The notes beneath the pieces are model-generated. The model saw only the letters and a program-made list of their open reading frames with translations, searched no databases and had not been told where the DNA came from. A program made the translations under genes and the position numbers. Of a stretch of 64,000 nt of DNA, positions 35,968 through 64,000 are shown in pieces. The DNA comes from Schmidtea nova. Taxonomy: Eukaryota. Each line of letters starts with the position of its first letter. The first letter of the stretch is position 1. The DNA is taken from assembly GCA_044892505.1 (NCBI GenBank), contig CM097882.1:209870001-209934000 (forward strand), in the 5' to 3' direction.

Positions 35968-35968
35968 A
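35963..35968 (+). terminator. Candidate poly(A) signal in the LTR (copy near 62124)
   Basis: AATAAA overlapping the ORF2 stop, followed by a GT-rich tract (TTGTCTTGTTTGTTTGTGG). Confidence 0.5.
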
Positions 35969-36359: not shown

Positions 36360-36377
36360 TGGGGGCTCAGCCGGGAT
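36360..36377 (+). promoter_or_regulatory. Primer-binding site of element B (tRNA-Pro type)
   Basis: TGGGGGCTCAGCCGGGAT, 6 nt after the LTR end. Confidence 0.88.
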
Positions 36378-36914: not shown

Positions 36915-37373
36915 ATGGAGAACAAAATGAAAGAAATGCAAACGTTTTTCGAAACAAACAACGAGACAGTGGAGACAATAACGAGAAAGTTAAGACGACT
37001 CGAAGTAGGAGGATATCACGAGCCGACAAACAACACAGAAAGAGCCGAAATGATAATGAGCATAAGCGAGAATAAGAACACAGTGGATACAGCAACACGA
37101 TATCAGTGGTATAGAGAGCGATTAAACAACCCTGAGATGAATATCGAGTGTCACAGGCTAGAACAACAGTTAACAACAAAACACGACGAGTGGACGAGAA
37201 TAACAACAGAACATACGAGACAATATTTGACGTGTTATATCTGTGAAATGAACAAAATACAGATAATGTTGTTGCCATGTGGGCATTTTCGATTCTGTAA
37301 TGAATGTGAAATAAATGAACGATGTCCTATGTGCAACCTTCCCGTATCTGAGAAAGTAACAGTGTACTTGTAA
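36915..37373 (+). CDS. 152-aa protein with C-terminal IAP/MDM2-type C3HC4 RING; putative E3 ligase, no BIR seen
   Basis: CYICEMNKIQIMLLPCGHFRFCNECEINERCPMCNLPVSEKVTVYL*. Confidence 0.85.
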   Translation: MENKMKEMQTFFETNNETVETITRKLRRLEVGGYHEPTNNTERAEMIMSISENKNTVDTATRYQWYRERLNNPEMNIECHRLEQQLTTKHDEWTRITTEHTRQYLTCYICEMNKIQIMLLPCGHFRFCNECEINERCPMCNLPVSEKVTVYL

Positions 37374-40298: not shown

Positions 40299-41170
40299 AT
40301 GAGTGAACACAGAGAGGATCTGAGAGAAAAATTCAAGGGCGAACCATTCAATGGAGACGCCAGTAGATTGGACACGTTTCTAAAGGAATTTGGCATATTC
40401 GTGGATATATGCGGATGGAGTGCAGAAACGTTGGCAAATCGAATCCCGCTATACTTGAAAGATAGCGCATTGGATCTGTATATTGAAAAGAGATCTGGAA
40501 GTAGTCCACCCAGAACGTGGGAAGCAATCAAGGAGTTCTTCCAACAGACGTTTGGGATAAATAAAGTATTAAACGAAGCGTTCGATGAGTTTTCTGCAAG
40601 AAAACAAAGGAGAAACGAGTCAAATGCGGTGTACGCAAGCGAATTAAGAAAGTTGGCGAAACTGGCATTCAACAGAGGAAGCCCAGTAGATGAAGAATTG
40701 ATGACAGCGTTATTCGTACGAGGTCTCAGGAGACCTGACATCAGAGCACAAGTGGGATGCAAAGGATGTAAAACAGTAGATGAAGCGTTGGAAGCAGCCA
40801 ACCTATTCGAATTGCATATGGCAATGAATGACATGAGAATTACGGCGGTAATGGGAAAAATGACAGAAGATGAAGAACAAGGAAAAAGAAACATGAATCA
40901 AAGTATTCCCCATTCGCAGAGATTGTTCAAAGAACCGCCAGCGAGGAAAAATAATGGATATATCACAGTAAACCCGAATGGAGGAAACAGTTACAATGAC
41001 AGGCAGAATAGGCAATGTCAGACGTGTGGAAAAAACGGACATTGGCAACAAGATTGTTTTCAGAATGTAGCCTGCAAACTGTGTGGACAAAAAGGTCACT
41101 CAGAAAATCGATGTTATGGGAAAACGTGTTACACATGTGGAAAAACCGGACACATGTCAAGAGACTGTAA
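40299..41170 (+). other. gag: Gag: capsid-like domain and three CCHC zinc knuckles
   Basis: FNGDASRLDTFLKEF...W..IKEFF...RKQRRNES..YASEL; CQTCGKNGHWQQDC, CKLCGQKGHSENRC, CYTCGKTGHMSRDC. Confidence 0.92.
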
Positions 41171-47100: not shown

Positions 47101-50100
47101 GACACTCAAAAGACATACATCGAAAAAAGAGGTTATTGAAGATACTTGCAAAAATGAAAGGAACAAACGAAGATGTCGGAAGGAAATTCAAAAAGATAAT
47201 GCAAGACGAGCAAGCAAGGCGACAACTAAAGAAAGAAAGGAAAGGATTATGGGAAAGAGTGAGAGGATATCGAACGCAGGATGACTCAAGCAATGATGAC
47301 GACGATGACGATCAAGGAGGACAAGCGAATATAAACCAGATTCCACAGTATAACGAAAAGAGTGCAGTTGAGAATTGGAGATACAGTGCTCCACCCCAGT
47401 CAATGTATAACGAACCGATATACAAAGCGAAGCCGAATATGATGCAGATGATGCCGATGACAAGTATATACCCGATAATTCCAGAAGGATGTAAAGTAAA
47501 ACGATGCAGAAGTGTAGACCCGTTGGAAGACACGCACACGATAGCGGTTATGTCCACAAATATGGGACCGATTTTAACAACAACCGTAGAAATAAACGGA
47601 AGAGAAATTGAAGCTATGATCGATACAGGCGCGAATATTTCGGCAATCGACATCAATTATATACCAGAGAAAAACCAAGGAGAAATAGAGAAGACGAATG
47701 TTCATGTAATCGCGTGCAGTCAAGAGACAGTAGAAGTAGCCGGAAGATGGTTTGTAAAAATTAAGCATCGAGGTGCAGAAATCAACACGTACATCGCTGT
47801 AATACCATCGCTGAGTGTACCATGTATTATTGGAACTGACCTGATGCCAGACCTGTTCAAGGAAATCGTAATTGATCTAGGAGCAATGAAGCTAAAAGAT
47901 AGAACAGGAAAAATCTGCAGAATGAAAGTTAAAGTGGCAAGTACAGAACAAATAGTAGTGCCAGCGAGACACGAAATGATGTGCTATGTCAAGATCGATT
48001 CAACAATAAAGGGAGATATGATATTCGAACCAAGTAAGAAGTTCGAAGCGAAGAAAGAATTACCAATGGCCAGAGAATTGGTTACGATAAACCAAGAAGG
48101 TGAGATACTGATTAATCTGGTGAACTTCGACGAGGAGGACAAGATAATATACGAGAATGAGAATTTGGGTAAATTGACACCCATGTCCGAAATCGAGATA
48201 CCAGACAAGAACGTGAAAAGCAAAAGCGAATTACCATGGAAAATCGACAGTGTGTTGTTAGACGAACGACAAAAAGAACAGTTACAGAAACTGTTGATGG
48301 AATATCAAGACATATTCGCAGCATCAGATCTGGATTTAGGAACATGTGACGTAACATTACATACGATACCGTTGACAGACGAAACGCCAATCGCATTAAG
48401 ACCATATAAATTGGCAGAAGCTCAAAAAGCAGTGGCAGAAGAAGAGGTACAAAAGATGTTAGATGCAGAGGTCATCGAACCTAGTTGCTCACCCTGGCAA
48501 TTCCCAGTGGTGATGGTGAAAAAGAAGGATGGAACTCAGAGATTCTATATCGATTACAGACGATTGAACGCAGTTACGAAAAGAGATACGTACCCACTGC
48601 CAGATATAAACGAAATGTTGTTGACGTTACAAGGAGCAGCTTATTTCACGTCACTGGATTTAAAAAGTGGATATTGGCAGATCAAAATGAAAGACGAGGA
48701 TAAAGAGAAGACAGCATTTACAATCGGACGAGATCTGTACCAATTCAAGAAAATGCCGTTTGGGTTAACAAACGCGCCAGCATCATTCCAGAGATGCATG
48801 AATTTCGTAACACATGGCATAAAACAATGCATGGTGTATATTGACGATCTATTGATCTACTCCGCAACATTTGAAGATCACTTGCAAGACATCAGAAATG
48901 TGTTCGTGAAATTGAGACAGTGGAAACTGAAATTAAAGCCGTCAAAGTGCGATTGGGCAAAAGAGAAAGTGACATTCTTAGGTCACATTGTATCAGCAAA
49001 AGGAAAAGAACCAGATCCAAGGAATATCGAAAAAGTTAAAGAATGTCCACCACCAAAGACAGTGACTCAAATACAAGAATTTTTGGGATTGTGTGGATAT
49101 TATCGAAAATTTATCAAGGACTATGCAGGACTCTCAAAACCAATGCAAGAATTGGTAAGACAAGATGTATCGTTCGTATGGGGAGGAGAACAACAAGCAG
49201 CATTTGAAACACTACGGGACAAGCTGATTACAGCACCAATATTGGTCCATCCAGATTTTAAGAAGCCATTTTTGTTGGCAACAGATGCAAGTGGATACGC
49301 AGCAGGAGCAGTACTAGGCCAATTTGATGAGGAAGGCAAGGAAAGAGTAATTGGATATTACAGTCGAACATTCAGAAAGCATGAAAAGAATTACTCAGTC
49401 ACGGAAAGAGAAGCCTATGCGATAATATTGGCAATCAAGCATTTCAAGTACCTATTGTGGGGTCATGAAATATATATCACGACGGATCATCAACCATTGG
49501 TATGGTTAGGTCAACATAAAGAATCATCAAGTAGATTGATGCGTTGGGCGATGCAGTTGCAGGAATACTCGCCATTCATAAAGTTTAAAGCAGGAAAAGC
49601 AAATGCGAACGCGGATTGCATGTCAAGGTTTACATTCCCAGAATTGGTGAACCTAAATGCTCTAAAAATATGTGCATTAATAGCGGAGGATTTGGATTTC
49701 AGCGAATTAAGGAAAGATCAACTCGAAGATGAGGAGTTGGGATTGATCAGCAAGTATTTGAAAGAAAGGGAAATAGAAATATTCGGCAAAAACCAAGTGT
49801 TGCGCGAACATATGCAAAAATACCAACATAGATACGTGATGGAAAAAGGATGGTTATTGATACAAGATGGAGAACGAAGATTGATGTGCTTACCTGCGAA
49901 TAGACGAAAGGAAATCATGACTCAATATCATGACGGAAAATTAGGCGGACATATGTCAGCAAAAAAGACAATCGGGAGATTGAGACAAAAGTATTTTTGG
50001 CCAACCATGGAAGATGAAGTGAAAGAATGGATAAAGAACTGCTTAACCTGTGCGACAAGAAAGAACGTCGGAACGAAGTGGAAAACACCACTAAAACCAA

Positions 50101-53100
50101 TGCCAATACCTGCAGAACCTATGGCAACGATAGCAATGGATGTAGTTGGACCATTGCCAGAAAGTTTAAAAGGAAATCAATATATATTAATAGTCACGGA
50201 CTATCTAACAAAGTTCCCAGAAGCATTCGCAATACCGGATCAAAAAGCGAAAACAGTCGCGAGAATATTGGTGGAAGAAATATGCTGCAGATATGGAACA
50301 CCAAAGAAAATCCTAACGGATCAAGGAACGAATTTCATGAGTGAAATATTGGACGAAGTTACGAATTACTTCAGAATTGCGAAATTACGAACATCCCCAT
50401 ACCATCCACAAACGAACGGTCAAACAGAAAGATTCAATGGAACATTGATACGCATGTTGTCAAATTATGTCAGTAAACATCAAACTGACTGGGATGAGTA
50501 TATAAACCTGTGTTTAATGGCATATAGAATGTCAATACATGCGGCAACAAAGCTAAGTCCATTTCAACTGATGTACGGAAGAGATTGCAACTTACCGATC
50601 GATTTAGAATACCAACCACCATTATCACAGTACATGGAGGTTGACGATTACGTTACAAAGTTCAAAGAAAGAATGCAAGAAATCTGGAAAACAGCGGAAC
50701 TGAACATCAAGTTCTATCAAGAGAGTTACAAGGATCTGCATGATCAGAAAAAGAATGTGAAAGCACATGATTTAAAAGTTGGAGATTGGGTGATAATCGA
50801 GACACCAGAGATAATACCCGGTACGGTCAAGAAACTCCAACGACCAGGCAAAGGGCCATATGAAATAACAACAGTAAACGAAAACAATGTGCGGGTACGA
50901 TTGGTGAACAATCCATTGGTAAGACCAATATACGTGAATGCATGTCGATGCAGGAAAATCCCAAAGACAGCAACTCTATCACCAGAAAAACGGGTAATTA
51001 CAAGATCACAGACGGCGAGAATCAGTATGTTACGAGTACAACAAAAGCCGCAAACAAGTCTAGAAGACAACCGAAGAGAAGCAATAGATAGCAAAGAACT
51101 GGCAAAGAGGACCAGAGAAATTATACCAGAATGGAAATGGTGGTTCGATTTCAATATATTGACAGAAGTTCGAAAGAATGTAATGGAGTATTCGAAGGAT
51201 AGAACAGCACATCCAATAACAAGAACGCTGCTAGAGGAAATCCCTCAAACATTGAACCTACAAGACAAAGACGGTAACACAGCGTTGCACAATGCAATCA
51301 AGCACAGTGGGAACGAAAAAGTGAAAGAGATCGTAGAGATGATACTCGAAGGTGGAGGAGAAATTGACAAAGTGAATTGGGAAGGAATCACTCCACTTAT
51401 GATGATGACAATTCACGGAAGAAACGATGAGATAGTCAAGCTATTCGGAAACACCAGATCAAATTGGATGACAAAGGATAAAGAAGGACGAACATTCTTA
51501 AATCATGCAATTGATAGAGCGAATCACCGAATACTAAAGTATATCACGGAAAACGCCACGTGGGAAATCGATGAACTAACTAGAGGATCGATCATGAAAC
51601 AAGCAATCGGAGTAAGAAACAGTAAAACCTGGAGAATACTGCTAAAGTGGAAACGACCAGAAGGAGATTCGTGGGTCATAGATTGTAATGAAGTGTTCAC
51701 AAGAGGAGAAAATGCGTTACTGAAACATCTACTAGAGGTAACATACGATCCAAAAACACTTGCAGTGTTAATAGCGAGAGATACGTTACGGGTTAGCGAA
51801 AACCCAAGAGAATTCAAGTTGGAAGACAGAAAGAAAGAACTATTCGGATTAATCAGGAAATGGTGTGATAAGCAATGGAATGCGCATATGAGCTTCGAAC
51901 ATTTTTATGACATTCAAAAGCAGCACAAAGAAATAAACAAGAGATATAAAGAGCTGATAGAAGCATTGAAATATGGACATTTCTTCAGACAAGCAGTGTA
52001 CCAAGACCAACGGAGGAAACAGATGCAAACACGAATAAGAAGCAAAGCCGTGTTGTTCAATGCAAAAGCCGATGATCAAGAGAGATTAGACGCAATCGTA
52101 GCAAAAGCACAGGAAAAACTATCGGAATTCAAGGAGAATAAAAACTCGTTGGAAATACTAGGAGCAATTACAGAGAAAGTGCACAGATACGCACAAGGAG
52201 ATTATAACGAAAGTGACATAGAAACGATCAAGAATCAAATGCCAGTGGCATTCCTTTTATCAAAGGATGGGAGATTACCGATACACTGGGCATTACGTCG
52301 AAAGAAAGAAAACGAAGTGCTGGAAATAACGAAAGCAATGATAAAGTGCGAAGCAGATATGAATATGGTTGATGATAACGGAGACACAATAATGATAATC
52401 GCAGCAAGAAAGAAGACGAAATTGAAAGTGCTACACGAGTTATACGAAGCAGGAGCCAAAATCGAAGGGAAAAATGGAAAGAAAAATTCCATCATAGATA
52501 TCGCAATACAGTGGAACAACTTCGAGATGATCAAGTTCATAAAGTCCATCAAGAGACAAGAGGACATAGAATACCTGGCAAATAACGTAAAGAAGTTCAG
52601 TCTGACAGTAATGATACACGACATAGAGAAAACGAGAGCATTACTAACATGGGTGAATCCGATCACCAAAGAACCAGCGCTCAAGATCAATGACCATATG
52701 GAACAGAATCAGAATTGGTGTATCAGAAGCGCGTTATTAAGACACAAAAAGCCAGAGATAGTAGAAGAATTCTTAAAGAGAAGAGATTTGAAGTTCACGA
52801 ACAATCCAAAGGAACCCGAACGAACGGGAAGATGGAAAGACTTGTTCAGAAAATATGTGAATGAATGGGCAAATGCCAAAGAAACGATCAAACAAAGTAG
52901 ACTAAAAGACATAGAACCATCCAAAGATATGGAAATACGGGAATTCGAGTCTAGCACACTCACAGTTCAAGCGTATGAAAGATTGATTGAAGAAATCAAT
53001 GTCGAGGACGACATTTTCAAAGGACCAGGGGGTGGTTACAGAGATTTCGACGACAAAAGCAACAACGAAGAGAACAACGAAGACAATGACAACAAAAGAA

Positions 53101-55175
53101 CGGAGGATAATGAAAAAGAAAGACAAGAAGAACCGAAGCCAACGAGAAACGACAAGAAAGGAGAAGCAGAAGAACGAGAAAACAGTGGAACAAAAGACGA
53201 ACATGCGAACTATGGAAAACGAACAGGAAGTCTACTTTTGAGACCAGAAATGTTGTGTATTGCGATATTGATAACAATCATCGGACAAGGAGAAGCCAAG
53301 AAACAATACGTCACGCTAGAGATAATCAGAGGAAATGAAGTATATGAAAGAATATGCTGGAAAGAAAACCTGAAGAAAAACGATACGCTGAAGTGTATAT
53401 TGTCAGATCTGAAGCGAGACGTCATCCAAATCAAAGGATTGGAGAAAGAAAAATCATACATAATATGCGCAATAAAGCAGAGAGGAGAACCAAAAGCACC
53501 TCAAGTAACTGCATGTCAATTATATAAAGCAACAGAAGCGCTGAAAATACAGAAATGGATTGGAAAAAGAAGCGAAGAGACAACGAGAAGAACAGAAGTG
53601 GAACCAGAGAAAGGGAAGAATCAAACCGAAACAGAAGAAGGAATCGGAAACCAAACAGAGAAAGAAAGAATAACCAAAAATCCAGCGGGAAAATTAACAT
53701 TCCAACCAGAATTGATATGTGTAGCATTAATATTAATCCTCATTAAGAGAATCATGGAGGACATAGATATCAGCGTGATGACGTTAGTAAATATCCAAGA
53801 CCAACGAACAACGAACGGAAGATGTTGGGGACGAAACAATGAAGTAATTGGAATCAGCGAAACAAGAGAAAGCCGAGAAGTAGAGACAAATGAAGAAATC
53901 GAAATAACCAAAATACACACAGATAGAAAATGTGAACTATGTCTCATGGAAAAAGCAGCAAACGGAAACAGACCAGGAACAAGCGAGTGTAAAGTGTTCC
54001 AAGCAAAGGAGATAATTGAGTTCCCAAAAAGAAGGAAACAAGATCAAGAAACGATTACAAATAAAGTAGTAACTGTGGAGATAAAAAACATTGGTCGGAG
54101 AACAATTGGGATGTGTTGGAGAAAATACATCGGAGTAACGACCAGTCACGTACTACCGCAATGCAGAACGAGAGAACGAGGAATCCCGTTTCAATTAAAT
54201 GGATTCGAAGTCGGACAAGCATATGAAATTTGCGTAATCCGAAGAATAAGAGAAATAATACAAAGAAGCCTGGAATGTAAACTATACAAGACGCCAGAGC
54301 AAATTAACGGAACAAGAACGATCGAAATGGGAGGAAGTCGACAGAGGAAAAGAAAGTCAAGAAAAACCACGACAACCAACAGTCAAGGAGTTCAACAGGC
54401 AACAATAGAAAAGACGACAATAGAAAACGAACCGGAATCAACAACGTTGATAATATGGAAGATCCATAAAAAGGTCCTAGAAATCTGTTGGACGTTGATG
54501 CCAAACAGTATGGGAAAGTCCCCACGAAACTGTCAAAAGACATCAAATGACAAAAGGGAAACAATCGAGGTAGAAATGAGAAAGTTGAAAACAAACGCAG
54601 AATACGAAGTGTGTGCAATCGAAGAAGTAGATGCACAAGGAAACCCACAAGAAAGGTGCGAAACCTATTACACGCCAAGGAACATAACGATAAAGGGGAG
54701 AACCCGCAAGTTAGAATTCCGAGAATTGAGTCAGAAGAGAAAACAAAACGAGAAGGAGGAGACAATACCAAGTCGACAAGAAAAATGGGAACCAGAGAAA
54801 GTGATCGAAGAAGTCAGACGGAGACAACAACAATACGAACAATGGGAAGCAGAATGGAAAGGTCAATATGGCGTGATGATAAACCAAAGTGAGACTCCAA
54901 GAAGGAGCATTGGGAAAACAATAATGGGATTAATCAGCATGGGAGTATTCATAGCGTGTATTCCACTGATAACGATCATGATAGTATGTTGGAGATATGG
55001 CATGAGAAATAAGACCATAGCAGTAAAATGGCCGGACGTAAAAGTCACGAATTACAACATAAAACTACCAAAAGAAGTACGAGAAGAGCTGAAAAGACGA
55101 TCAAAACACGAAGAAATGTGGGTACAGATCGAGGACGAGGAACTGTACGAAGGAAAACCAGTGATAGTTGTATAG
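40299..55175 (+). CDS. 4,958-aa Gag-(UBL/Bcl-2-like)-Env-PR-RT-RH-IN-Ank-FN3-like-TM polyprotein
   Basis: Single uninterrupted ORF carrying all canonical retroelement motifs plus extra domains. Confidence 0.97.
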   Translation: MSEHREDLREKFKGEPFNGDASRLDTFLKEFGIFVDICGWSAETLANRIPLYLKDSALDLYIEKRSGSSPPRTWEAIKEFFQQTFGINKVLNEAFDEFSARKQRRNESNAVYASELRKLAKLAFNRGSPVDEELMTALFVRGLRRPDIRAQVGCKGCKTVDEALEAANLFELHMAMNDMRITAVMGKMTEDEEQGKRNMNQSIPHSQRLFKEPPARKNNGYITVNPNGGNSYNDRQNRQCQTCGKNGHWQQDCFQNVACKLCGQKGHSENRCYGKTCYTCGKTGHMSRDCNQQRSWSNSGNRPNYGNRPSYGNQGQQRNNPNSSANEVSMKEAKLRQEVSRLHEIIESMAKGSQQAAQPKINMIQLIEAEAERENRESQQKHNQEWARIRREEEQVRQQRLQQLKKGNPRINMMRARMEKKQQDESDELEVKEKRNEEQKQEEVNQEVEVAEQNQKAEEVEKETNQEAEVRIKQRGMLVIMPNDHVWRFKYDVKEEVGRLFNKVNEMIPGVTKLPREAFLQTEDLPEVKLKMTDIWEDMGVTETKINVMIIREVEPEKIPPPVKHQTRISRIFKGKIRRRRLEEIDELEKRMGKAEVTGNENELIQEVSKNEARPTAHIGMLRHPRQELSDEEDNSEVSSLAGDMLKEPENEDKKMEVVETMETVSVTEDEIQKLMDNALEVIHNEEFIDKKRYRKFIRAVWQMKYKEWLQEREVRVIQEFIEKLLKEPLNEYVIQIWINECSPRIWIRNPMTDGIYRWVEDRLGSSYKDKFIYSENGLVRKGTHMIDTGIWPGEITTLSIRNTKKEENLQGIVKEANTCYEMRIKPQLLEAKERILAENLNTIIEQIIQQIKKHRKELTKSEYENLKQCIENIRDTSQTRHSNFKTDKLIAKMGKEMFKRGEVSDLKITVRLPNEETKQIEVIPDSKVGEIVDVINETILQREREDEFEDYIAIKYKEHLLNERDERRAYKIGIWDNYQTIHVIRMDDVQRATPKDEERRKKRQEDVMRKLRQIVEIYRNWQMKPELETILGELDLNRRRVTPVGKQWDSKEKCWKVKRGVYEEDPEVEDRYEPNTKRICMVTRRLLPTDLDGPETAVIWAELEKQKTSELIELLRGNTRGKRQTIKGLAQFIISNGEDITNLRKVAKAIAEYKRVNEWCPEQLDDVIKKWRNREFAEEMPQKIHLRIMYPNQRKEEFWVMLTEKVKSIKEKLMYELPFHLQHQGRSLDNSLEIWLTPVQLDLMNTLTVAQIVGQPLKFKEEKKPKGSMSTPSPMKSTMTPGTSSGQARTTPIKTRERTPPEAYDVDEILTDSDEAIEELTKLTQKPTANIFDKIIEMPITSPAEIDDQGVEQEVVIEMVNDSEDEQEQPQFTQEMERWLEQRANEGRDVTEETGRATRFVETGTGMEKRPRGRPKIDPTTAIPKTREERRQEQWEICLKKLDKIAEIRGKEENQVCQGEEWLTKTIMDVLAIIDPELKNLWRINEPSTKAKMLHNAIAPIMPELIKAKTKSNHLDWQGTTRLIKRLLSGAETDSKYLVAISYTIYNLLTLSRGSPKSSPMGRHIKNTAMIIEKEIEPYILRKGGWEKFIKENQTKEGSNVMRKKLEGVLREMENRQTMQGNGRSTLNLNSIIMMMLVWLLSTEGVTTFEVFDCDQMKLGEKYSLRGTEQCKDATPVELKEIKKEQWYHVYQEAELIKTMVNECKVQKTRFAFYCGRGHYSAIVMPGTEREPIVLQGEDCEALFKHGEVTTRDKIKIRGKPGMMLQQTYYVAGRITGGEGYCQGETYPIFGVPATNLVVMDTYIVELKSYEAFFEPTTGEMKTLSMCKIDRSMCQTGMSTLVYKPKVNECQLQLLQGAKFDEIQGKTFQEEDDDDKARAKHLKEALENKRQLKPDHREKRIEMRTTPTVLITTNQDVGMRFIKGKATLKCSTTVYETNYPGIYVSKQEVPNAKPKIDTMDIKLHLYVNNKMDFLFHRGQASLQKVYYDLINNDCILNREILKTKLAVAITNPDSAMPLLPLREGHFGRVVGEAMYVYICEKTHASLAATTQLKPGQCTNELEIDYKGKVRYVQPVTRIINPPGFEPNPFNCSNAYGPLYQKPDGKWVMFPGRTEVLAPREFELMQLSKDRQFSDVDVSNNGIYSPKDLEAARQNILFPARREALLSNIVTITGGTDYREGPNYELLLSPAHFKKATENMMKAMWGRFLIFGQMMAGILGVILIIQIVRVIITQMLACFDIYKREKKVNWKMVVGFLPFLAKTMVLHGHSKDIHRKKRLLKILAKMKGTNEDVGRKFKKIMQDEQARRQLKKERKGLWERVRGYRTQDDSSNDDDDDDQGGQANINQIPQYNEKSAVENWRYSAPPQSMYNEPIYKAKPNMMQMMPMTSIYPIIPEGCKVKRCRSVDPLEDTHTIAVMSTNMGPILTTTVEINGREIEAMIDTGANISAIDINYIPEKNQGEIEKTNVHVIACSQETVEVAGRWFVKIKHRGAEINTYIAVIPSLSVPCIIGTDLMPDLFKEIVIDLGAMKLKDRTGKICRMKVKVASTEQIVVPARHEMMCYVKIDSTIKGDMIFEPSKKFEAKKELPMARELVTINQEGEILINLVNFDEEDKIIYENENLGKLTPMSEIEIPDKNVKSKSELPWKIDSVLLDERQKEQLQKLLMEYQDIFAASDLDLGTCDVTLHTIPLTDETPIALRPYKLAEAQKAVAEEEVQKMLDAEVIEPSCSPWQFPVVMVKKKDGTQRFYIDYRRLNAVTKRDTYPLPDINEMLLTLQGAAYFTSLDLKSGYWQIKMKDEDKEKTAFTIGRDLYQFKKMPFGLTNAPASFQRCMNFVTHGIKQCMVYIDDLLIYSATFEDHLQDIRNVFVKLRQWKLKLKPSKCDWAKEKVTFLGHIVSAKGKEPDPRNIEKVKECPPPKTVTQIQEFLGLCGYYRKFIKDYAGLSKPMQELVRQDVSFVWGGEQQAAFETLRDKLITAPILVHPDFKKPFLLATDASGYAAGAVLGQFDEEGKERVIGYYSRTFRKHEKNYSVTEREAYAIILAIKHFKYLLWGHEIYITTDHQPLVWLGQHKESSSRLMRWAMQLQEYSPFIKFKAGKANANADCMSRFTFPELVNLNALKICALIAEDLDFSELRKDQLEDEELGLISKYLKEREIEIFGKNQVLREHMQKYQHRYVMEKGWLLIQDGERRLMCLPANRRKEIMTQYHDGKLGGHMSAKKTIGRLRQKYFWPTMEDEVKEWIKNCLTCATRKNVGTKWKTPLKPMPIPAEPMATIAMDVVGPLPESLKGNQYILIVTDYLTKFPEAFAIPDQKAKTVARILVEEICCRYGTPKKILTDQGTNFMSEILDEVTNYFRIAKLRTSPYHPQTNGQTERFNGTLIRMLSNYVSKHQTDWDEYINLCLMAYRMSIHAATKLSPFQLMYGRDCNLPIDLEYQPPLSQYMEVDDYVTKFKERMQEIWKTAELNIKFYQESYKDLHDQKKNVKAHDLKVGDWVIIETPEIIPGTVKKLQRPGKGPYEITTVNENNVRVRLVNNPLVRPIYVNACRCRKIPKTATLSPEKRVITRSQTARISMLRVQQKPQTSLEDNRREAIDSKELAKRTREIIPEWKWWFDFNILTEVRKNVMEYSKDRTAHPITRTLLEEIPQTLNLQDKDGNTALHNAIKHSGNEKVKEIVEMILEGGGEIDKVNWEGITPLMMMTIHGRNDEIVKLFGNTRSNWMTKDKEGRTFLNHAIDRANHRILKYITENATWEIDELTRGSIMKQAIGVRNSKTWRILLKWKRPEGDSWVIDCNEVFTRGENALLKHLLEVTYDPKTLAVLIARDTLRVSENPREFKLEDRKKELFGLIRKWCDKQWNAHMSFEHFYDIQKQHKEINKRYKELIEALKYGHFFRQAVYQDQRRKQMQTRIRSKAVLFNAKADDQERLDAIVAKAQEKLSEFKENKNSLEILGAITEKVHRYAQGDYNESDIETIKNQMPVAFLLSKDGRLPIHWALRRKKENEVLEITKAMIKCEADMNMVDDNGDTIMIIAARKKTKLKVLHELYEAGAKIEGKNGKKNSIIDIAIQWNNFEMIKFIKSIKRQEDIEYLANNVKKFSLTVMIHDIEKTRALLTWVNPITKEPALKINDHMEQNQNWCIRSALLRHKKPEIVEEFLKRRDLKFTNNPKEPERTGRWKDLFRKYVNEWANAKETIKQSRLKDIEPSKDMEIREFESSTLTVQAYERLIEEINVEDDIFKGPGGGYRDFDDKSNNEENNEDNDNKRTEDNEKERQEEPKPTRNDKKGEAEERENSGTKDEHANYGKRTGSLLLRPEMLCIAILITIIGQGEAKKQYVTLEIIRGNEVYERICWKENLKKNDTLKCILSDLKRDVIQIKGLEKEKSYIICAIKQRGEPKAPQVTACQLYKATEALKIQKWIGKRSEETTRRTEVEPEKGKNQTETEEGIGNQTEKERITKNPAGKLTFQPELICVALILILIKRIMEDIDISVMTLVNIQDQRTTNGRCWGRNNEVIGISETRESREVETNEEIEITKIHTDRKCELCLMEKAANGNRPGTSECKVFQAKEIIEFPKRRKQDQETITNKVVTVEIKNIGRRTIGMCWRKYIGVTTSHVLPQCRTRERGIPFQLNGFEVGQAYEICVIRRIREIIQRSLECKLYKTPEQINGTRTIEMGGSRQRKRKSRKTTTTNSQGVQQATIEKTTIENEPESTTLIIWKIHKKVLEICWTLMPNSMGKSPRNCQKTSNDKRETIEVEMRKLKTNAEYEVCAIEEVDAQGNPQERCETYYTPRNITIKGRTRKLEFRELSQKRKQNEKEETIPSRQEKWEPEKVIEEVRRRQQQYEQWEAEWKGQYGVMINQSETPRRSIGKTIMGLISMGVFIACIPLITIMIVCWRYGMRNKTIAVKWPDVKVTNYNIKLPKEVREELKRRSKHEEMWVQIEDEELYEGKPVIVV
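41720..44055 (+). other. Region with up to four ubiquitin-like (beta-grasp) domains
   Basis: For example LKITVRLPNEETKQIEVIPDSKVGEIVDVI..IAIKYKEHLL..IGIWDNYQTIHVI and IHLRIMYPNQRKEEFWV..VKSIKEKL..FHLQHQGRSLDN; pattern match by eye. Confidence 0.55.
44590..45090 (+). other. Bcl-2-like domain
   Basis: BH1-like LDWQGTTRLI and BH2-like IEPYILRKGGWEKF, conserved in element A. Confidence 0.6.
45180..47100 (+). other. env: Env-like glycoprotein (chuvirus/herpes gB-type) with signal peptide, furin-like REKR site (45990-46001) and TM
   Basis: FEVFDC..YSL..C, FYCG..HYS, GE.MYVYIC, C.NEL...Y.G..RYVQPVTRII, GIYSPKDLEAARQNILFPARR match the chuvirus glycoprotein pattern as I recall it. Confidence 0.8.
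47553..47910 (+). other. Retropepsin-type aspartic protease
   Basis: VEINGREIEAMIDTGANISAI ... IIGTDL. Confidence 0.95.
47920..48185 (+). other. Degenerate dUTPase-fold-like spacer common in animal Gypsy pol
   Basis: IVVPARHEMMC..MAR.LV..I.INLVNF....IIYENENLG; catalytic motifs not evident. Confidence 0.4.
48309..49630 (+). other. pol: Reverse transcriptase and RNase H
   Basis: SPWQFPVVMVKKKDG, LDLKSGYWQI, MPFGLTNAPASFQ, YIDD, FLGH; LATDASGY, EREAYA, TDHQPL. Confidence 0.98.
49880..50960 (+). other. Integrase (HHCC, DDE core, GPY/F)
   Basis: YHDGKLGGH..CLTC; MDVVGP, TDQGTNF, GQTERFN; KKLQRPGKGPYEI. Confidence 0.97.
51240..52760 (+). other. Two ankyrin-repeat clusters fused after integrase
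   Basis: DKDGNTALHNAI, NWEGITPLMM, DKEGRTFLNHAI; KDGRLPIHWAL, DDNGDTIMIIAA, LYEAGAKI. Confidence 0.85.
53230..55000 (+). other. Hydrophobic signal-like segments, four FN3-like Cys modules and a C-terminal TM helix
   Basis: Repeated CW....C....L....Y.(I/V)C....C..Y.T; TM IMGLISMGVFIACIPLITIMIVCW (about 54918-54993). Confidence 0.55.
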
Positions 55176-55298: not shown

Positions 55299-55649
55299 AT
55301 GAATCAAGAAACCACAGAGATGTCAATGATGACAAGATGGAAAGTGCAATGTGACCTGCTAGCCAGAACAATAAACGAATTACAGAGCCAGTTGACGGCC
55401 AAAACGCAATTATTAACCGAAAGTTATAACTGTAATTTCGAAGCAATGAACAAAATCGAGATTCAACAACTACAGATAAACGAATTACAGAACGAGAATC
55501 GAACATTAAATGAAGTAAACAATTGGCAAGCAGAGGAAATTGACCGATTAACGAGACATGAAGAGGAAGAGATACCGGATAGTTGGACGAGCTGGATTGT
55601 AAATGAGATAGACGTGTATCCAGAGCCGGATTCAACTGAGGATGTATAG
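55299..55649 (+). CDS. 116-aa coiled-coil protein with acidic tail
   Basis: Intact ORF with the same strand and A-rich codon style as the polyprotein; YAG acceptor upstream. Confidence 0.65.
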   Translation: MNQETTEMSMMTRWKVQCDLLARTINELQSQLTAKTQLLTESYNCNFEAMNKIEIQQLQINELQNENRTLNEVNNWQAEEIDRLTRHEEEEIPDSWTSWIVNEIDVYPEPDSTEDV

Positions 55650-55741
55650 TGAATAAGCGGAAAATTGTGTAAATACGTGTAAATAAAGAACCAGAAAAAA
55701 AATCAAAAATATGGGGAAATTGATGTAAATATTGTTGTAGA

Positions 55742-57154
55742 ATGAGAGCAGAAAGTGAAGCAGATTACCAAACGATCGAGATTCTAAGAAGAGAAAATCG
55801 GCAATGGGGAGTAAATGTGACGTGTGTAAAGTGTAAAAATCTACTGTTAAAACCGAGGCAAACGGAATGTGGATGCAGGATGTGCACTAAGTGTATATTG
55901 CAAATAATCAGTGAAAGTGAGACAAGAAAGTGTCCAGAGTGTGACGATAAACTACTAATCAACGAGACTAAACCAGACAAAGCAATACAAAAGGAGATCT
56001 GGAAGATAAAAAAAGAGTGTGTAAACCAACCATGTGAATGGAAAGGACAAATAATCGAGCTAAGACAACATCTGGAGAAATGCGAAAACAAGAAAGCGAT
56101 ATGTGAAAAGTGTCAACAGACGACAACCATCAAGCAGTCGAAAAATCACAAGGATGAGTGCAAAGCAGAGATAATAGAGTGTCAATACTGCGAACAAAGA
56201 GAGACGAGAGAAGTAATCGAAACAGAGCATCTCAACGTAGCAGAAGAGAAAGTGTGCGGAAAATTCCGAGGAATTTGTCCAAGTAATTGCGAAACCGGAG
56301 AAGAGGTGATGTTGAGAGAACATTGGGAACAATGCGAGTCAAGACCAAGAAAGTGCGTATGGAGTAAACAAGGATGTGCAGTAAAGAAAACGAGCAAAGA
56401 GATGAAAGAGCATTTGGAAACAGAAACGGTACAACACGCCGAGATGTTAACAGAAAATTTGAACGGAATGGAACAAGCCATACAGAAACTGGGAAAAGAA
56501 GTTGAATCTCAGAGGATAATGACGGAGTTATTACTGGAAACGAGAGAGCAATTCGAGCTCACCAGAGAGAAAATGATGGAGAAAATCAAAGTCATAGAGA
56601 CGCTAGTAAAGGAGGTAAATGTACGACATCAAATATGGGTGCGAGATGCGGAGGATATCGAGAGTTTACCTGTTGCACCATATATATGGAAAATCAAGAA
56701 TTTCAACGAAAAGTTCGCAGCAGCAAGAGCAGGAAGTCAAGTGTCGGTAACAAGTCCACCATTTTATCTGTGGAAAAATGGATACAAAGTTCGAATGAGA
56801 ATTTATCCAAATGGAGATGGATCAGGAAAGGAAACGCATGTGTCATTATTCTTTGCGTTGTGTAAAGGTGGTTACGACGACATATTAGAATGGCCGCTAG
56901 AGACAAAGGCTATAATGAGAGTGAAAAACTCGAAAGAAACAATAGCGAGAGTATTCAAAATTGATGGTAAGCACGAAGCTTACAAAAGACCAACCACAGA
57001 ATGTTCATTAGCGACTGGAGAACCAAAATTCATACCACACCAAACAATGTGGGAGATGTTGTACGACGACAAGTTATATGTAGAGTTGGAGATCGAAAAG
57101 AAAGCAAGTACAACAGTGATGAACACGAAGTCAACGAAAGGATGGTTAGAGTAG
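55742..57154 (+). CDS. TRAF-like protein (RING - TRAF zinc fingers - coiled coil - MATH), intronless
   Basis: CVKCKNLLLKPRQTECGCRMC..CPEC; CEWKG..L..HLEKC; YIWKIKNF..SPPFY..GYK..RIYPNGDGSGKETHVSLFF..KGGYDDILEWP. Confidence 0.92.
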   Translation: MRAESEADYQTIEILRRENRQWGVNVTCVKCKNLLLKPRQTECGCRMCTKCILQIISESETRKCPECDDKLLINETKPDKAIQKEIWKIKKECVNQPCEWKGQIIELRQHLEKCENKKAICEKCQQTTTIKQSKNHKDECKAEIIECQYCEQRETREVIETEHLNVAEEKVCGKFRGICPSNCETGEEVMLREHWEQCESRPRKCVWSKQGCAVKKTSKEMKEHLETETVQHAEMLTENLNGMEQAIQKLGKEVESQRIMTELLLETREQFELTREKMMEKIKVIETLVKEVNVRHQIWVRDAEDIESLPVAPYIWKIKNFNEKFAAARAGSQVSVTSPPFYLWKNGYKVRMRIYPNGDGSGKETHVSLFFALCKGGYDDILEWPLETKAIMRVKNSKETIARVFKIDGKHEAYKRPTTECSLATGEPKFIPHQTMWEMLYDDKLYVELEIEKKASTTVMNTKSTKGWLE

Positions 57155-57243: not shown

Positions 57244-58404
57244 ATGGAAAACGCAAATGAACATGTAATCGAAGAGGAAACGAGAAGCGGGATGTCGAAC
57301 GAACGAGAAGCACTAGAAAGAGAAATCGAAAGGAGATGTAAAGTGGAAGTGGAACAAAGAACCAGAGAGTTACACGAAGCGATGACAAACAATTTCTACG
57401 AGAAACTAAAATGCGAAAGACGAATGGAGTTATATCAACTAGAACTCGAGGAAGTGACTAAAGAGATACTACAACTGACCACACAAATAGAGAAGCTAAA
57501 AGGAACGAATTCACGAAGTCGACAGAAGATAGAAGAGACCTATCAGTTGATGAGAAAACAAGCTGAACATTACAAAAATGTGATGAAAACGCGAAGAGAA
57601 GAGAGGGAGAAACAAGAGGAAAAGATGGAGGTAAAAATACTAGCAATCAAGGCTCAAGCGAGACATTGGAAGATGGAGTCGAAACGAGTGTATAAAGAAG
57701 CCAAAGAGATAATCAGAAGGACAGCACACAGCGAAGATTGGAAACTGTATCAAGAGATAGACGAATTGAAAGAGGAATTGGAACAGAGAAAACGACAAGA
57801 ACAGACAAACAAAGAATGGAGTCGAAAACGACAGCGATTTATTCGAGAACAGGCAAAGGAACTAAAGAAAACGCAATGGCAAATACAGATGATAAATGGA
57901 GAAATGCGAGGCATTAGACAGAAAGAGGAAGCGGAAAGACAAAAGTTGATCAGGGAAAAAGAAAGCCTGGAAAGAGATGTAAATGGTTATCAAGGGGTGG
58001 TGACCCAAAAGAAAATGGAGTTGAAAGCAGTGAAGGAAAGACATGCGGAATCAAACCGAGCTTACGAGGAAAACATAACGAATTTGACGAAAGAAAACGA
58101 GGAACTGAAACAGCAGATAATAACCCTGAAAGCAGAGAAAGAAACCATAGAAGTAGAAACCGAACCAACAGAAGTAGAAGCCCTGAAGAGAAAAGTGGAA
58201 GGGATGGAAAGACAAATCGAAACTCTGAACGAACAATCAGACTATATGGAGTATCTGTTAGATGAAGAGATACAAATCTCTCGAACGTATCAAGATGAAA
58301 TTGCAATGTGGAGAAGTAGAGTGGTGTGGTTACCGTTTATACCACCACCACCAATGGAGCTCCAAGATGAAGGGTTCCATGAACCAGAGGAGACGGATGT
58401 GTAA
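57244..58404 (+). CDS. 386-aa long coiled-coil protein ending in ETDV
   Basis: E/K/R/Q-rich heptad pattern; intact ORF. Confidence 0.75.
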   Translation: MENANEHVIEEETRSGMSNEREALEREIERRCKVEVEQRTRELHEAMTNNFYEKLKCERRMELYQLELEEVTKEILQLTTQIEKLKGTNSRSRQKIEETYQLMRKQAEHYKNVMKTRREEREKQEEKMEVKILAIKAQARHWKMESKRVYKEAKEIIRRTAHSEDWKLYQEIDELKEELEQRKRQEQTNKEWSRKRQRFIREQAKELKKTQWQIQMINGEMRGIRQKEEAERQKLIREKESLERDVNGYQGVVTQKKMELKAVKERHAESNRAYEENITNLTKENEELKQQIITLKAEKETIEVETEPTEVEALKRKVEGMERQIETLNEQSDYMEYLLDEEIQISRTYQDEIAMWRSRVVWLPFIPPPPMELQDEGFHEPEETDV

Positions 58405-58477: not shown

Positions 58478-59002
58478 ATGAACTGGCTCAAAACCCTACC
58501 AATCCTAACGATTATGTTAACTGCAATAATCATGAACTATTCAACAACCGAAATCCAAAGAACCCTGTCAAACGAGATATCCCAAGAGATTGAAAAACAA
58601 CTAAACGAAGTCAGAGAAGACCTGAAACAATTAATCCGACAAATGCGAATCAGTCATGATCATCGCAAACCCTTACAAACCCTATTCAATCAAATCGAGA
58701 AGATCCGAGAAATCCATAAAACATTTCAAGATCAACTAAAGCCAATCAAAGGCCAAACCCAAATCGAATCTGAAATCCGAAACAGATGGATCATCGTTGG
58801 AATAGTCACAATGACAATATTGACAATCATCTTGATCATCGTGATCACGTATACCCTACATCGAATCAGAAGCCTCAAACAACAACAAACGATAATGTGT
58901 AGATGTGCCAAAAGAGAAGCAAAAACCCAACAAAGGATGAGAAGCCATCTACGACAAATTCAAGCCCGATACGAAATGCAGTCAACCAGTGAAAGGACCT
59001 GA
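58478..59002 (+). CDS. 174-aa membrane protein (N-terminal hydrophobic segment, coiled coil, TM, coiled coil)
   Basis: LPILTIMLTAIIM and WIIVGIVTMTILTIILIIVITYTL. Confidence 0.7.
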   Translation: MNWLKTLPILTIMLTAIIMNYSTTEIQRTLSNEISQEIEKQLNEVREDLKQLIRQMRISHDHRKPLQTLFNQIEKIREIHKTFQDQLKPIKGQTQIESEIRNRWIIVGIVTMTILTIILIIVITYTLHRIRSLKQQQTIMCRCAKREAKTQQRMRSHLRQIQARYEMQSTSERT

Positions 59003-59204: not shown

Positions 59205-60740
59205 TGTTGGGTCAGCCAAATCGAGCAGCATCTGAAAGATAATACATAAATTAAGAAAATAAAGCTACTTAAAATAACAACAAAATAAATTACCAGCATA
59301 AAAAGTAGAAAATAAGCGGCAACATCTAAGAGAAATAAAGTATTAATCAAAACAAAATAAAACTCAAGAACTCACTCATGCGAAGCAGATAAAATCTGAA
59401 TATGACAGCGCGTGGGCGGCTGTCACCGAAGAGCTAAAACAAAATCAAATAAAAATTAAATCATACAAAAAATAAACTTACCGCATGATTAACCAAATAA
59501 ATCATTGAGTTGAGTTAGGCACCAAAAAGCCGACAACATAAAAAAATGAATCAAACATACACACATACTCGATGCTGATTGGCTGACCAACAACACCGGT
59601 TGAGTATAAATACTGAAGTCAAATCAGTATTTGACAATGTCATTTTTACTGAAGGTAAATCAGTACAACAGTTACTTTTACGGAAGATATTGTAAAACCG
59701 AGTTGGAAATAAAAGGTAATTTGGAGTTATGTTATTGATGTGTTTAAACCCTCATAATTGTTTATAATCATATTAAAATCCATAAGGTTTTCCGGAGGCC
59801 TAACAGCCTGACGGATTCTTGGGCCTCTCAGCGCAACACAATCTTTCGGTTGTGAGGTGCCGATGCGGCGGGACCATAGGTGTTCTAAATATTTAACAAG
59901 CGGAAGGGGGAAGTGCACATAGGATATCTAATGCCATCGTAACAACGGTATGGGCGATAGAAATTGAAGGATGCATCATCTGTCACAACGACATCGAGTG
60001 AATGAGTGTACCTAAGAAGTTTGTCAATAGACCAGGGGTATCTAACGTTCGTGAAGTCGAGTAAAGTAGCAACAGCTTTGTACAGAGGATATGTATCAGG
60101 ATAGACAACATCAAGTCAGCTAAATTAAGTACTGACGAGGGTAGAGATGTACAACGCATGAGTCATGTGAGTTCAGGAGCTGAGAGGGTTAGCGTCAGAG
60201 GTAAACAATGAATCAACAAGGCATCCCAACATATATACACCTCTCGAAGGGTACGAAGGATAGACCCCACGGATATGCCATGATAGTACGATCTATACCC
60301 AATTAGTCTGAGTAAGGGGTTGATCATGTTCCCCGGATGATGTGATCCTTGATAGTTAAAATTGATGGTTGGAGGTAAAACCTGAGGAATGATTGAGCAT
60401 GATTGCTGTAAATATGAACTGAAAAATGTCTCGTAGATAATAACATCCAAACAAAATGAACGGTCAAGTGATCTCTGTAGTTGAAAACAAAATATCATAA
60501 ACAGCACGATGAATTATGCGTGGCCAACTCACATAAGCAAATTGATAGAGTGAATATATTCACCCACAATGATAATAAAATATGACCTACATGGTATCGC
60601 AAACATCGGACTAGTTCAACATTGAACCACCGACTGAAGCCTACAGAGTTTCACCCTTAAGTCGAGTAGGTCGACGGGTATAAATAATCGCGCTTACCCG
60701 ACAAATCTATCACTCTACCATAATTCTTGTCTTCAGCCAC

Positions 60741-61376
60741 ATGATAAAGACCGAAGGATACCAAACGGAGCTGATCGACTCACGACATATGAAAGTGGAG
60801 GATTATGTCATCCGGAGAAAACGACGTACCCGTTCCATCATCCGGCCAAAGAGGAACCCCACCATCGAGGGAGAAATGGAAGCCCCCCGCCGAATTAGTG
60901 CAATTGCACGTCGACACTTACGCCGATGGATAAGACATCATACGAGTGCAGCCGCCGATATTCCGGCTTGTGCCTTCACCATACAACTGCGATGGGAGGG
61001 AGACACCGATTGGACCTCCACCACGGATCCTGCCGAGCCAAGGACCGATAGATGGTTCTATCAATTCCTCGACGAACAGAAACGACCCCGTTGGATATTG
61101 AGTAATGAGATGATGACGGGAAGGGCTCTATATCAATTAGGGTACATGCTGCTAGACAGGCCTCGGTGTCGCTACACTGAGGAAGTCTTCGCCTACTCCA
61201 ACGCGCCAGGAAGCGTGTCTTTAGCGCAACACCCCGAGGCCAAGGAGCTTCGCCTCTGGGAGGTGTTTATCTACAAAGATAAGCTGAGTTGGAACCCAGC
61301 CCCAGAAATGTATTGGGAGAATGGAATTCGTCGCGACGAGCATCCTGCCGATCAGGAATTGAGAGCATCCAGTTGA
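60741..61376 (+). CDS. LTR ORF1, 3' LTR copy
   Basis: One aa difference (C/R) from 34580-35215. Confidence 0.75.
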   Translation: MIKTEGYQTELIDSRHMKVEDYVIRRKRRTRSIIRPKRNPTIEGEMEAPRRISAIARRHLRRWIRHHTSAAADIPACAFTIQLRWEGDTDWTSTTDPAEPRTDRWFYQFLDEQKRPRWILSNEMMTGRALYQLGYMLLDRPRCRYTEEVFAYSNAPGSVSLAQHPEAKELRLWEVFIYKDKLSWNPAPEMYWENGIRRDEHPADQELRASS

Positions 61377-61564
61377 TCGACACCACCCGAGAAAGAATGA
61401 TTGTCATAGATATAAAAATATATGTATTTGTGTGAGAACGGTCTTGTTTTGTTTTCGAGTGTATGAGAATAGCATGATGATAAGGTGGAGTTGTTTCATA
61501 ACGACAGGATGACCGAAAGATCAGACACATAACATATACTACCATTAATGATATATTTACAGAC

Positions 61565-62128
61565 ATGACTGAAACCAAGGACAGAGATTTCAAGCAAGAG
61601 GCGCGAGAACATAAGGCGCGCTCACGAGTTTTGGAGAATCGGTTAAGGCAGCTGAATGAGGAGCATCAGCGGATTAAGACGACATGGTTTAACCCAGAGC
61701 GGGTTAAGTCCATCCTGCAAGCTAGATACAGGGCGGAACGAACAATCAACGAACAGGCGAGAGAGGTCGCAGCCCTGAAATTAGAGTTGGCCAATTACTT
61801 AAAGGTGTCGACCCGAGACTTCATCACCGAGCAGTTGCGTCCTGTGATCCGGGCAAGCACTTTTAATCGATGGGTAGACACGATAGCGGTGACTACGAGC
61901 ACCCAAACGGAAAATGCATCGACCGTAACTACAGCTACTGCAGTGACAGCTACAACTCCTCAAGGATCGCAAAGAACAAAGAGAAGGAATCGCTTAGGAG
62001 CGAAAAAGCGGAGAGAGCGACGTGCATATGCGGATCGCCTAGGAATAGAAATAGACTTGCTCAGCGGTCTATCTGAACAAGAACTTCTGAATGTAATTAG
62101 ACCATCGGTGTTATTAAATTGTAAATAA
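61565..62128 (+). CDS. LTR ORF2, 3' LTR copy
   Basis: One aa difference (V/A) from 35404-35967. Confidence 0.78.
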   Translation: MTETKDRDFKQEAREHKARSRVLENRLRQLNEEHQRIKTTWFNPERVKSILQARYRAERTINEQAREVAALKLELANYLKVSTRDFITEQLRPVIRASTFNRWVDTIAVTTSTQTENASTVTTATAVTATTPQGSQRTKRRNRLGAKKRRERRAYADRLGIEIDLLSGLSEQELLNVIRPSVLLNCK

Positions 62129-64000
62129 ATGTATTGTAAACGAATGATTTGACTTGTCTTGTTTGTTTGTGGAATGTTTGAGGATTGAATGTAACTAAAA
62201 CCCGGATTCATTTAAACTGCAGATATCTAAAAAGTAAATTACCCTATGACAAAAGGAAAGAGCATAAGTGGGACCGAAAGAAATCCACAAACACCTTCTA
62301 TCGGTAGTGGTGGACCCGTGAATAAACAAGGGAATAGTAGCCGCAAGGTTGCTCACCTGCCTTGTCATTTCACAACGTTGACACAGCACCAACATGATGA
62401 GTAGTTAGGGATACATCATGGGTGTCAGCGGGGGAATGTTTTTATGTTGGCGAGATCACCCTAACATATAAAATCACAATGATCTCAGTTGTCAATCTAA
62501 CCAACACACCAGCACTGGTCATTGTTATATACGTAATAAACAGTATATTTAATGTAAGTTTTAATATTTATGTTGTACGAATGTATTTGGAAAGAAGATC
62601 TGTTGAGCCAAGCAGAATCTCCGGTAAAAATCTGTCTTGGGGCAGCTGGGGTGAATGTTGTGTGGAGTATGCAATGGTGTGTCTGCGTTTGGGTGTATGT
62701 TAATGTTTTATTATCAACAAATATTAAAAACAAAATTTTAACCAATAACTTTTTAAAATTTTATTTATTGAAACACAACCAAATAGAAGAATGAATACTC
62801 ACGTGTGTGCCAAAACAATGACGGTCGAATAATAATTGTTACATAATTGTCGAATAATTATTAAGTAATAATAGCAGTACTATGATGGTTGGATAATTGT
62901 TGGATAGCAATTGTTGTACAACGATAGAATGATAATTGCAGGATTATAATCAATAGATTATCGAGATCGTCGTGATTCCTCTAGTCCGTGCCAGTTCTAA
63001 GTTGACCGTTTAGTGTACAACGACGATCATCAATCCGAAGACCAACAACCAAAGCAAAATTCGCCCATCAACCAGTTAAAAAAGTACCATCTCAACACCA
63101 TTTCAAGTTGCCTCAAAACAGCATCAAAACAGCTCAATTCTAAACCAACTGACTTCTTAACTAAGCCCATCATACCCGGTCCTTAGAGCCAATCCTTTTA
63201 CCGAAGGTACGGATCTAATTTGCCGACTTCATGAATCGAGATCGTTAAATTATATTTTGGTTTTATCTTTCGTTTTGTTTTCTTCCACTAAGCAATTTTT
63301 TAAATAATTACTGGACAATAGTTGAATCGAGATTTTTAAATTATTTTTTGGTTTTATTCTCTTCTACTTGGCAATTTCCTAAATAATTTCTTTAGTTGTT
63401 TATTTTTTCCAATCTTTCTTAGCTCTTGAATTTGTAGTTTTTTAAATGTTTCGTTTTTTTAAAATTTCTATATTAATTATCAATTTTTTAATTTTTTTGA
63501 ATTCTCTATATTAAGTCGGCAAGTTAATAAACGACTTCGATCACTAGAACTGGGGGCAGGAGGCGGAAATAATTTGTTTAATAAATAATAAAATAACAGC
63601 AATAACAACAAAAATAACTACATAAAAATATTAATTTGATAACATAAGTTATTAATGTTTCATGTTTTGAGTTGTTACTGTGAGCCCTGGTAGCGTCAAT
63701 GTCATATCGACTGTCAACAACCCACCACGAGGATAAAACCACAGTAATTTGTTTTCGTGTATTGACAATAACCCACAAAATTTTTTTTGGTAACAGTGCT
63801 TACTTTTTGCGGATATCCTCCCATTTGCTACAGTACTACACAACTGATAAAATAGGGTTTTATAGTGTTTACTTGGAAATTTCTAGGAAAAACTAGGAAT
63901 TAGATCAACCAGTATTACCAACTCAATTTGTCAAGCACGATAATTATCAATATTCCGTAATCAATTCATTATGAATTTTACAATTTAAAAATAAGAAATC

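Follow-up and report, generated by a model that had tools for sequence, protein, structure and literature searches.

Burro or GYPSM1 elements are giant Ty3/gypsy retroelements of planarians, approximately 30 kb in length. The retrieved text of a review lists MATH_TRAF, RING, and BIR genes in this group, and already suggests that Burro meddles with apoptosis and ubiquitination (PMC6431247). The TRAF-related part described in that text is only a MATH_TRAF_C domain, which S. mediterranea carries within ORF1, and D. tigrina in an accessory ORF located upstream. Published work thus already documents TRAFs of DNA viruses, as well as MATH_TRAF in Burro, including in the form of an accessory ORF. ISKNV ORF111L, which is pro-apoptotic according to the retrieved text, is the sole characterized viral TRAF that we found (PMC3352826).

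In the present study, we analyzed a window of 64,000 nucleotides of Schmidtea nova (GCA_044892505.1, contig CM097882.1, positions 209,870,001 to 209,934,000, forward strand). It contains an element that shares with Burro, as the retrieved text of PMC6431247 describes it, a length of ~30 kb, a ~5000-aa polyprotein in which env lies in frame between the gag and pol parts, ankyrin repeats, and MATH_TRAF. The architecture matches that of the published Burro type, without assignment to any of the numbered families Burro-1 to Burro-4. The position of a TRAF gene in this element, its copy number, its placement in one clade inside planarian TRAFs, purifying selection on it, and its element-like codon use are observations of which we are virtually certain.

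The element and its TRAF gene

The element is 29.5 kb in length, bounded by LTRs that align with 99.76% identity over 3313 nt, and flanked by a target-site duplication, CTGG. The LTR ends were refined from the flanking sequence; the 4-bp duplication rule was common to copies of three related families. The TRAF gene lies between the LTRs, as the earlier note had claimed. The features of the element, all on the plus strand, are as follows.

33044..36353, plus strand: 5' LTR (TG...CA), 3310 nt, with the CTGG duplication just before it at 33040-33043
36360..36377, plus strand: primer-binding-site-like motif, common to families B, C, and D
36915..37373, plus strand: accessory RING ORF, 152 aa, with an IAP-type RING (zf-C3HC4_3); no BIR found
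40299..55175, plus strand: polyprotein, 4958 aa, with gag/CCHC, a Monjiviricetes-type fusion glycoprotein, PR, RT, RNase H, IN, and ankyrin repeats
55299..55649, plus strand: orf116, directly 5' of TRAF in all five lineages, family unassigned
55650..55741, plus strand: conserved spacer with a splice-acceptor-like TAG at its end, immediately 5' of the TRAF ATG
55742..57154, plus strand: TRAF ORF, 470 aa, one exon; C8 RING at aa 28-67, TRAF zinc fingers to ~235, coiled coil at 229-304, MATH at 314-451
57244..58404, plus strand: orf386, accessory ORF without a Pfam family, under purifying selection
58478..59002, plus strand: orf174, accessory ORF with hydrophobic stretches, under purifying selection
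59205..62514, plus strand: 3' LTR, with CTGG after it at 62515-62518, holding ORFs 60741-61376 and 61565-62128

The polyprotein has the Burro arrangement, namely, a single ORF of ~5000 aa in which env separates gag from PR-RT-RH-IN, together with ankyrin. No MATH domain is present in its 4958 aa; the MATH of this element belongs to the separate downstream gene. The Pfam search of the window element revealed neither a BIR nor a BCL2-like motif; the review had used a profile-profile search (PMC6431247). In orf116, EPDS near the C terminus was invariant in the four lineages aligned, and an ESM Atlas search with this ORF gave no usable lead. The motif at 36360..36377 shows a possible likeness to tRNA-Pro. 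The C terminus of orf386 is ETDV (ETIV in family B), which resembles a PDZ-binding tail. The LTR ORF pair (34580-35967 and 60741-62128; 211 and 187 aa) has no Pfam family and is not A-rich; homologues of the 187-aa ORF are located inside the LTRs of families B and C.

The earlier note had described a full-length, single-exon TRAF with RING, zinc fingers, a coiled coil, and MATH, and Pfam, a TRAF6 alignment, a structural model, and Foldseek all agreed with this description. The MATH domain passed the Pfam cut-offs (MATH_2, E 3.8e-27; TRAF-mep_MATH, 1.9e-25), and the RING and zinc finger matches were sub-threshold (TRAF3_RING, 1.4e-4, residues 28-67; zf-TRAF, 2.9e-4, residues 170-224). The alignment with TRAF6 across the RING and first zinc finger contained a single one-residue gap and placed C45 at the His position of TRAF6; the eight RING zinc ligands are C28, C31, C43, C45, C48, C51, C64, and C67, a C8 variant. 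The zinc-finger Cys/His residues were invariant in the TRAFs, and the zinc ligands remained unchanged across 35% identity. The AlphaFold model (74-row alignment; pLDDT 92.7) comprised a long helix at 229-304 and a MATH sandwich, and placed TRAF3, TRAF1, TRAF2, and TRAF5 on top in Foldseek (MATH fold, E 2e-17). Immediately N-terminal to the second RING cysteine, the element TRAF has Lys (Lys30) and TRAF6 has Ile, an E2 contact. This difference argues against strong E3 activity.

The designation "TRAF3-like" in the earlier note held only as a resemblance of motifs. However, the donor lineage was planarian-specific in the tree: the element TRAF grouped with triclad TRAFs (100/100), apart from the TRAF3-like echinoderm protein P0038 and vertebrate TRAF2-named proteins. 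The A-rich codon style that the TRAF was said to share with the element was confirmed. The A content of four-fold sites was 0.58 in the TRAF ORF, the same as in the polyprotein, versus 0.30-0.35 in the host TRAF ORFs L086-L092, and was 0.55-0.72 in full-length element TRAF copies.

Several other structures were noted in and beside the window. A second Burro-type copy, broken and inverted, occupies 1026-15286 on the minus strand and continues into loci L031-L032, with its 3' cassette (orf116, TRAF with one stop, orf386, and orf174) ~16 kb left of the window edge. The TRAF of this inverted copy at the left end showed 52% identity. The inverted copy is split by an insertion (L031:1901-8259) that contains an integrase fragment and a Pox_A32-like ATPase and that resembles a Polinton-like element. 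Tandem arrays with units of 19 and 32 nt are located at 38387-38671 and 16443-16837, 5' of the gag ORFs of both elements, and a long degenerate inverted repeat (85-97%) lies at 24782-32800 between the two large elements.

Copies, families, and selection

The TRAF gene is present in far more than this copy, and a one-off capture, which would have spoken against the earlier note, is contradicted. When the TRAF protein was used as a query, the best 90 of 3483 candidates were all 94-100% identical and near full length, and 85 were stop-free. The integrase was used as a second query in order to avoid a TRAF-based choice of copies, and its 150 matches comprised 115 of family A (94% or more) and 35 of family B (about 90%). 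TRAF was downstream of the integrase in 110 of the 115 family-A copies. For 81 of these 115 matches, TRAF was among the 90 scored (one TRAF was common to two matches and three were at odd offsets); the remaining 34 loci contained TRAF sequence in 29 and lacked it in 5, and the 470-aa ORF was intact in just 12 of these 34 lower-scoring loci. All of the family-B copies examined (15 of the 35 listed) carried a 52%-identical TRAF in the same position.

A host-like TRAF query revealed families C (45% identity) and D (35%), and the one mapped copy of each was bounded by LTRs with 99.8-99.9% identity. Exact 22-nt probes gave 117 (A), 76 (B), 9 (C), and 1,089 (D) matches, with none for the reversed controls; the total of at least 1,291 refers to sequence matches, not to intact genes. 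Across the four families, element TRAFs were 35-100% identical and in every case came after the polyprotein and a small conserved ORF. RT/IN are missing from families C and D, in which TRAF accompanies gag/env/PR or PR/ankyrin, a make-up that rests on a few loci. PR was fused directly to ankyrin, without RT, RNase H, or IN, in all 150 scored matches of family D and in 5 matches of the same kind in family C, and family D may include an autonomous minority. A BIR+RING IAP follows TRAF in family D. The LTRs were near-identical in families D (L116-L121) and C (L122-L125), and family D has further accessory ORFs without an assigned family.

The TRAF gene has evolved under purifying selection. Its dN/dS was 0.087 in the 30 best-scoring family-A copies, a sample that is biased low, and 0.125 (codon bootstrap 0.101-0.158) in integrase-selected family-A copies outside the top 90, a sample biased towards decay; the value over 59 of 64 family-A loci was 0.112. 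Values of 0.170, 0.191, and 0.141 were obtained for families B, C, and D, respectively; pairwise values are non-independent throughout, and the C and D loci were picked by TRAF similarity. Upper bounds were lower than 0.37 in four families. Neutral evolution, which would likewise have spoken against the earlier note, is contradicted by the range of 0.09-0.19 in every family. The transversion-only ratio was 0.094, and, therefore, hypermutable transitions do not explain the low dN/dS.

Variants common to several copies gave 0.08 and singletons 0.25, indicating more constraint on shared variants. Together with the intact ORF in only 12 of 34 loci, this suggests that selection acts on replicating element lineages, and that inserted copies decay. 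The polyprotein C-terminal part had a dN/dS of 0.22-0.33, and the other accessory ORFs were similarly constrained (0.07-0.28). Since every other accessory ORF shows similar constraint, selection does not single out a signaling role for TRAF.

Donor lineage and the host MATH repertoire

Homologues were collected by a full HMMER search of 1.84 billion proteins; a word-indexed search gave only 5 distant TRAFs. The best full-length homologues included TRAF-4, -2, and -5 of Dendrocoelum lacteum, and also the A-rich proteins P0007, P0035, and P0046, which grouped with element TRAFs. Trees were constructed with 134 rows (FastTree), 38 rows (quick), and 22 rows (careful); the latter two sets were hand-picked, and compositional bias was flagged in all three. 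In the careful tree, element TRAFs formed one clade (100/98), which was in a polytomy with two host clades inside the triclad clade (100/100). The larger trees showed the same grouping with lower support.

The host TRAFs of this genome matched the query in a single open frame, indicating a single exon, and carry CGC in the RING where a RING is present, with Cys for His as in the element TRAF. Among the host loci inspected, four were read in a context of 20-30 kb and two in one of 4.4 kb, and neither strand skew nor bracketing LTRs were detected. As host TRAFs are single-exon and C8, the donor lineage was already so, and the A-rich style was acquired in the element. Accordingly, the idea that the lack of introns marks retroposition at capture was rejected, as was the idea that Cys for His is element-specific: both of these clues in the earlier note are present in the element TRAF; however, host TRAFs share them, and they do not mark capture.

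The best explanation of these sequences is that element TRAFs derive from one old capture, predating the family split, from a planarian lineage of single-exon, C8-RING TRAFs. We infer the direction, from host to element, because one host clade has the more ancestral groove, and not from the branching order. A captured host gene with long residence, as the earlier note had proposed, is supported by the trees and codon composition.

That note had further suggested that element amplification could account for part of an apparent host TRAF expansion. In S. mediterranea, 99 transcripts with 121 MATH domains are given in the retrieved text of PMC6109357, and most MATH transcripts lack RING and zinc fingers in that of PMC7586133. 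In our genomic counts, element TRAF copies (at least 1,291 probe matches) dominate, exceeding the host MATH loci observed in this analysis by approximately one order of magnitude. However, the best 65 of 150 scored MATH matches outranked every family-A copy, and 55 of these 65 fell within C2:405-455 Mb, most of them in frames 135-210 aa in length. This dense cluster, in which few loci were inspected, is likely to be a separate host tandem expansion. The suggestion thus applies to genomic copy counts, whereas the published planarian MATH expansion probably has a host basis and was not created by elements. MATH was also found inside open frames of 4706, 1411, and 1304 aa (C1:97581571, C1:306457280, and C2:167493527), which possibly represent a Burro-1-like arrangement with MATH in the polyprotein. 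Element copies can confound both TRAF counts and RNAi probes in planarians; A-rich codon use and membership of the element clade provide a simple separator of element from host TRAFs.

Receptor groove and candidate role

Across the RING, zinc fingers, and coiled coil, element TRAFs and host paralogues were conserved to a similar degree (50, 42, 39, and 26% identity versus 53, 41, 32, and 21%). The groove segments 405-417 and 418-431 showed 26 and 46% identity among element TRAFs versus 75 and 74% in one host clade and 62 and 62% in the other. Within family A, these were the most constrained segments (dN/dS about 0.04). Divergence of the groove from family to family, together with its constraint inside family A, is consistent with binding that was re-specified rather than lost by decay. 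The element groove retains R353/Y355, and has HEA in place of SSS, the TRAF3/5 serine triad, and ATGEP in place of ASGCP. The serine-triad residues of TRAF3/5 contact receptor peptides. Likeness of the groove to vertebrates was 49% for one host clade versus 27% for element TRAFs; the groove of one host clade is also unlike the vertebrate groove.

The spacer before the TRAF ATG diverged by p 0.013 versus a synonymous pS of 0.145. YAG was present within 8 nt of the accessory ATG in 20 of 27 cases versus a background of 0.21-0.26; the family-D TRAF has no YAG directly 5' of its ATG. The conserved spacer, YAG before the ATGs, and donor-like sites within the family-A LTR suggest a spliced mRNA. Contigs of 4 sequencing runs over the stretch contained no junction from the LTR to the TRAF acceptor among the 15 of 33 listed, which is uninformative either way.

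We propose the following mechanism. A giant Ty3/gypsy element of the Burro type that carried an env-like gene would have taken one full-length TRAF and kept it as an accessory gene, probably expressed from a spliced subgenomic mRNA. The TRAF trimer would retain an intact RING-zinc finger scaffold with a peptide groove re-specified in each family. It may therefore not relay normal receptor input, and may instead bind element-chosen partners or divert host TRAF partners. The predicted outcome is the damping of cell-death or innate-immune signaling in the cell in which the element replicates, and the IAP-type proteins of the element may act in the same pathway. According to the retrieved texts, host TRAF knockdown in S. 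mediterranea increases cell death (PMC7586133), TRAF genes are TBK1-induced (PMC13563047), pathogen signals elicit a response of planarian TRAFs (PMC7958881), and somatic tissue expresses BURRO1 (PMC8532177).

The whole account, capture plus TRAF as an adaptor that damps host survival or immune signaling, appears somewhat probable to us. A signaling modulator, as the earlier note had put forward, is plausible. The BIR+RING IAP beside the family-D TRAF counts in favor of a role in survival signaling. However, the window element lacks a Pfam BIR and the viral TRAF ISKNV ORF111L promotes apoptosis, both of which count against damping. A stronger version is offered only tentatively and is rather doubtful: a self-contained TRAF-IAP cassette with family-specific ligand grooves may rewire host survival and immune signaling, kept by a family of >1,000 copies that shed RT, RNase H, and integrase, and element TRAFs may outnumber host TRAF/MATH genes many times.

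TRAF may instead serve the element's own cycle: as a ubiquitin ligase or a trimeric adaptor, it would bind element proteins (orf116, orf386, or the membrane-anchored tail of the polyprotein) and act in particle assembly, sorting, or release. The groove is specific to each family and constrained inside it, as would be expected from co-evolution with a ligand of the element; TRAF always adjoins orf116; and families C and D retain gag/env/PR or PR/ankyrin plus TRAF without RT/IN. However, the RING, zinc fingers, and N-terminal MATH strands remain host-like, IAP-type genes in the cassette point to host death signaling, and a by-eye scan of orf116 for known TRAF-binding motifs found none. We consider such a role to be unlikely. 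A pro-death or pro-inflammatory activator resembling iridoviral ORF111L, which aids particle release or spread, has a precedent in the retrieved text on ISKNV (PMC3352826); iridovirus TRAFs were among the Foldseek matches, and the element encodes a fusion glycoprotein. We regard this activity as improbable, given an IAP adjoining TRAF in family D and more than 1,000 tolerated germ-line copies.

Selection at the host level on copies that act as extra host TRAFs, or the descent of host single-exon TRAFs from the element by domestication, is compatible with single-exon full-length host TRAFs and with the polytomy of the element clade and two host clades. Inserted copies decay, the groove of one host clade is nearer to vertebrates than that of the elements, and host loci show neither strand skew nor bracketing LTRs; thus, this is very improbable. 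A neutral passenger amplified with the element, in favor of which we found no evidence, is scarcely credible in view of the dN/dS upper bounds and the invariant zinc ligands.

The damping adaptor that we favor may be compared with known systems. The element TRAF shares its domain order, length, C8 RING, and clade with triclad host TRAFs (D. lacteum TRAF-2, -4, and -5; L086-L092, L133, and L134), and its single coding exon with the host TRAFs of this genome. However, it is only 26-32% identical to triclad host TRAFs, which follow host codon use, are few in number and arranged in tandem clusters, and have a better conserved receptor groove. Vertebrate TRAF2/3/5 share the MATH fold and R-x-Y motif, but are about 25-30% identical and differ in the serine triad and the His-to-Cys RING; no single vertebrate TRAF is the orthologue of the element TRAF. 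TRAF2-cIAP is a known vertebrate module, which the family-D TRAF beside a BIR-RING gene resembles in adjacency.

In the top-ranked records of the literature searched, we found no report of a full-length TRAF in an element, of selection on it, of the lineage that donated it, or of TRAF-keeping families that lack RT; the primary 2018 Burro description or Repbase entry may show more. Within that literature, a whole conserved TRAF gene in an element is apparently new. In contrast to Burro in the retrieved text of PMC6431247, a complete RING-zinc finger-coiled coil-MATH gene is located downstream of the polyprotein in five lineages, TRAF is also present in families without RT/RH/IN, and selection, copy number, and donor lineage were measured. 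The published aside that Burro may meddle with apoptosis and ubiquitination thereby becomes a testable case. The viral TRAFs, namely, ISKNV ORF111L, those of other iridoviruses, and giant-virus TRAF-like proteins, are likewise captured TRAFs kept by a mobile genome; however, they belong to DNA viruses, are 10-27% identical to the element TRAF, and are shorter in iridoviruses. Viral and element TRAFs presumably represent separate captures. An animal LTR element, as DNA viruses do, carries a whole signaling adaptor under selection.
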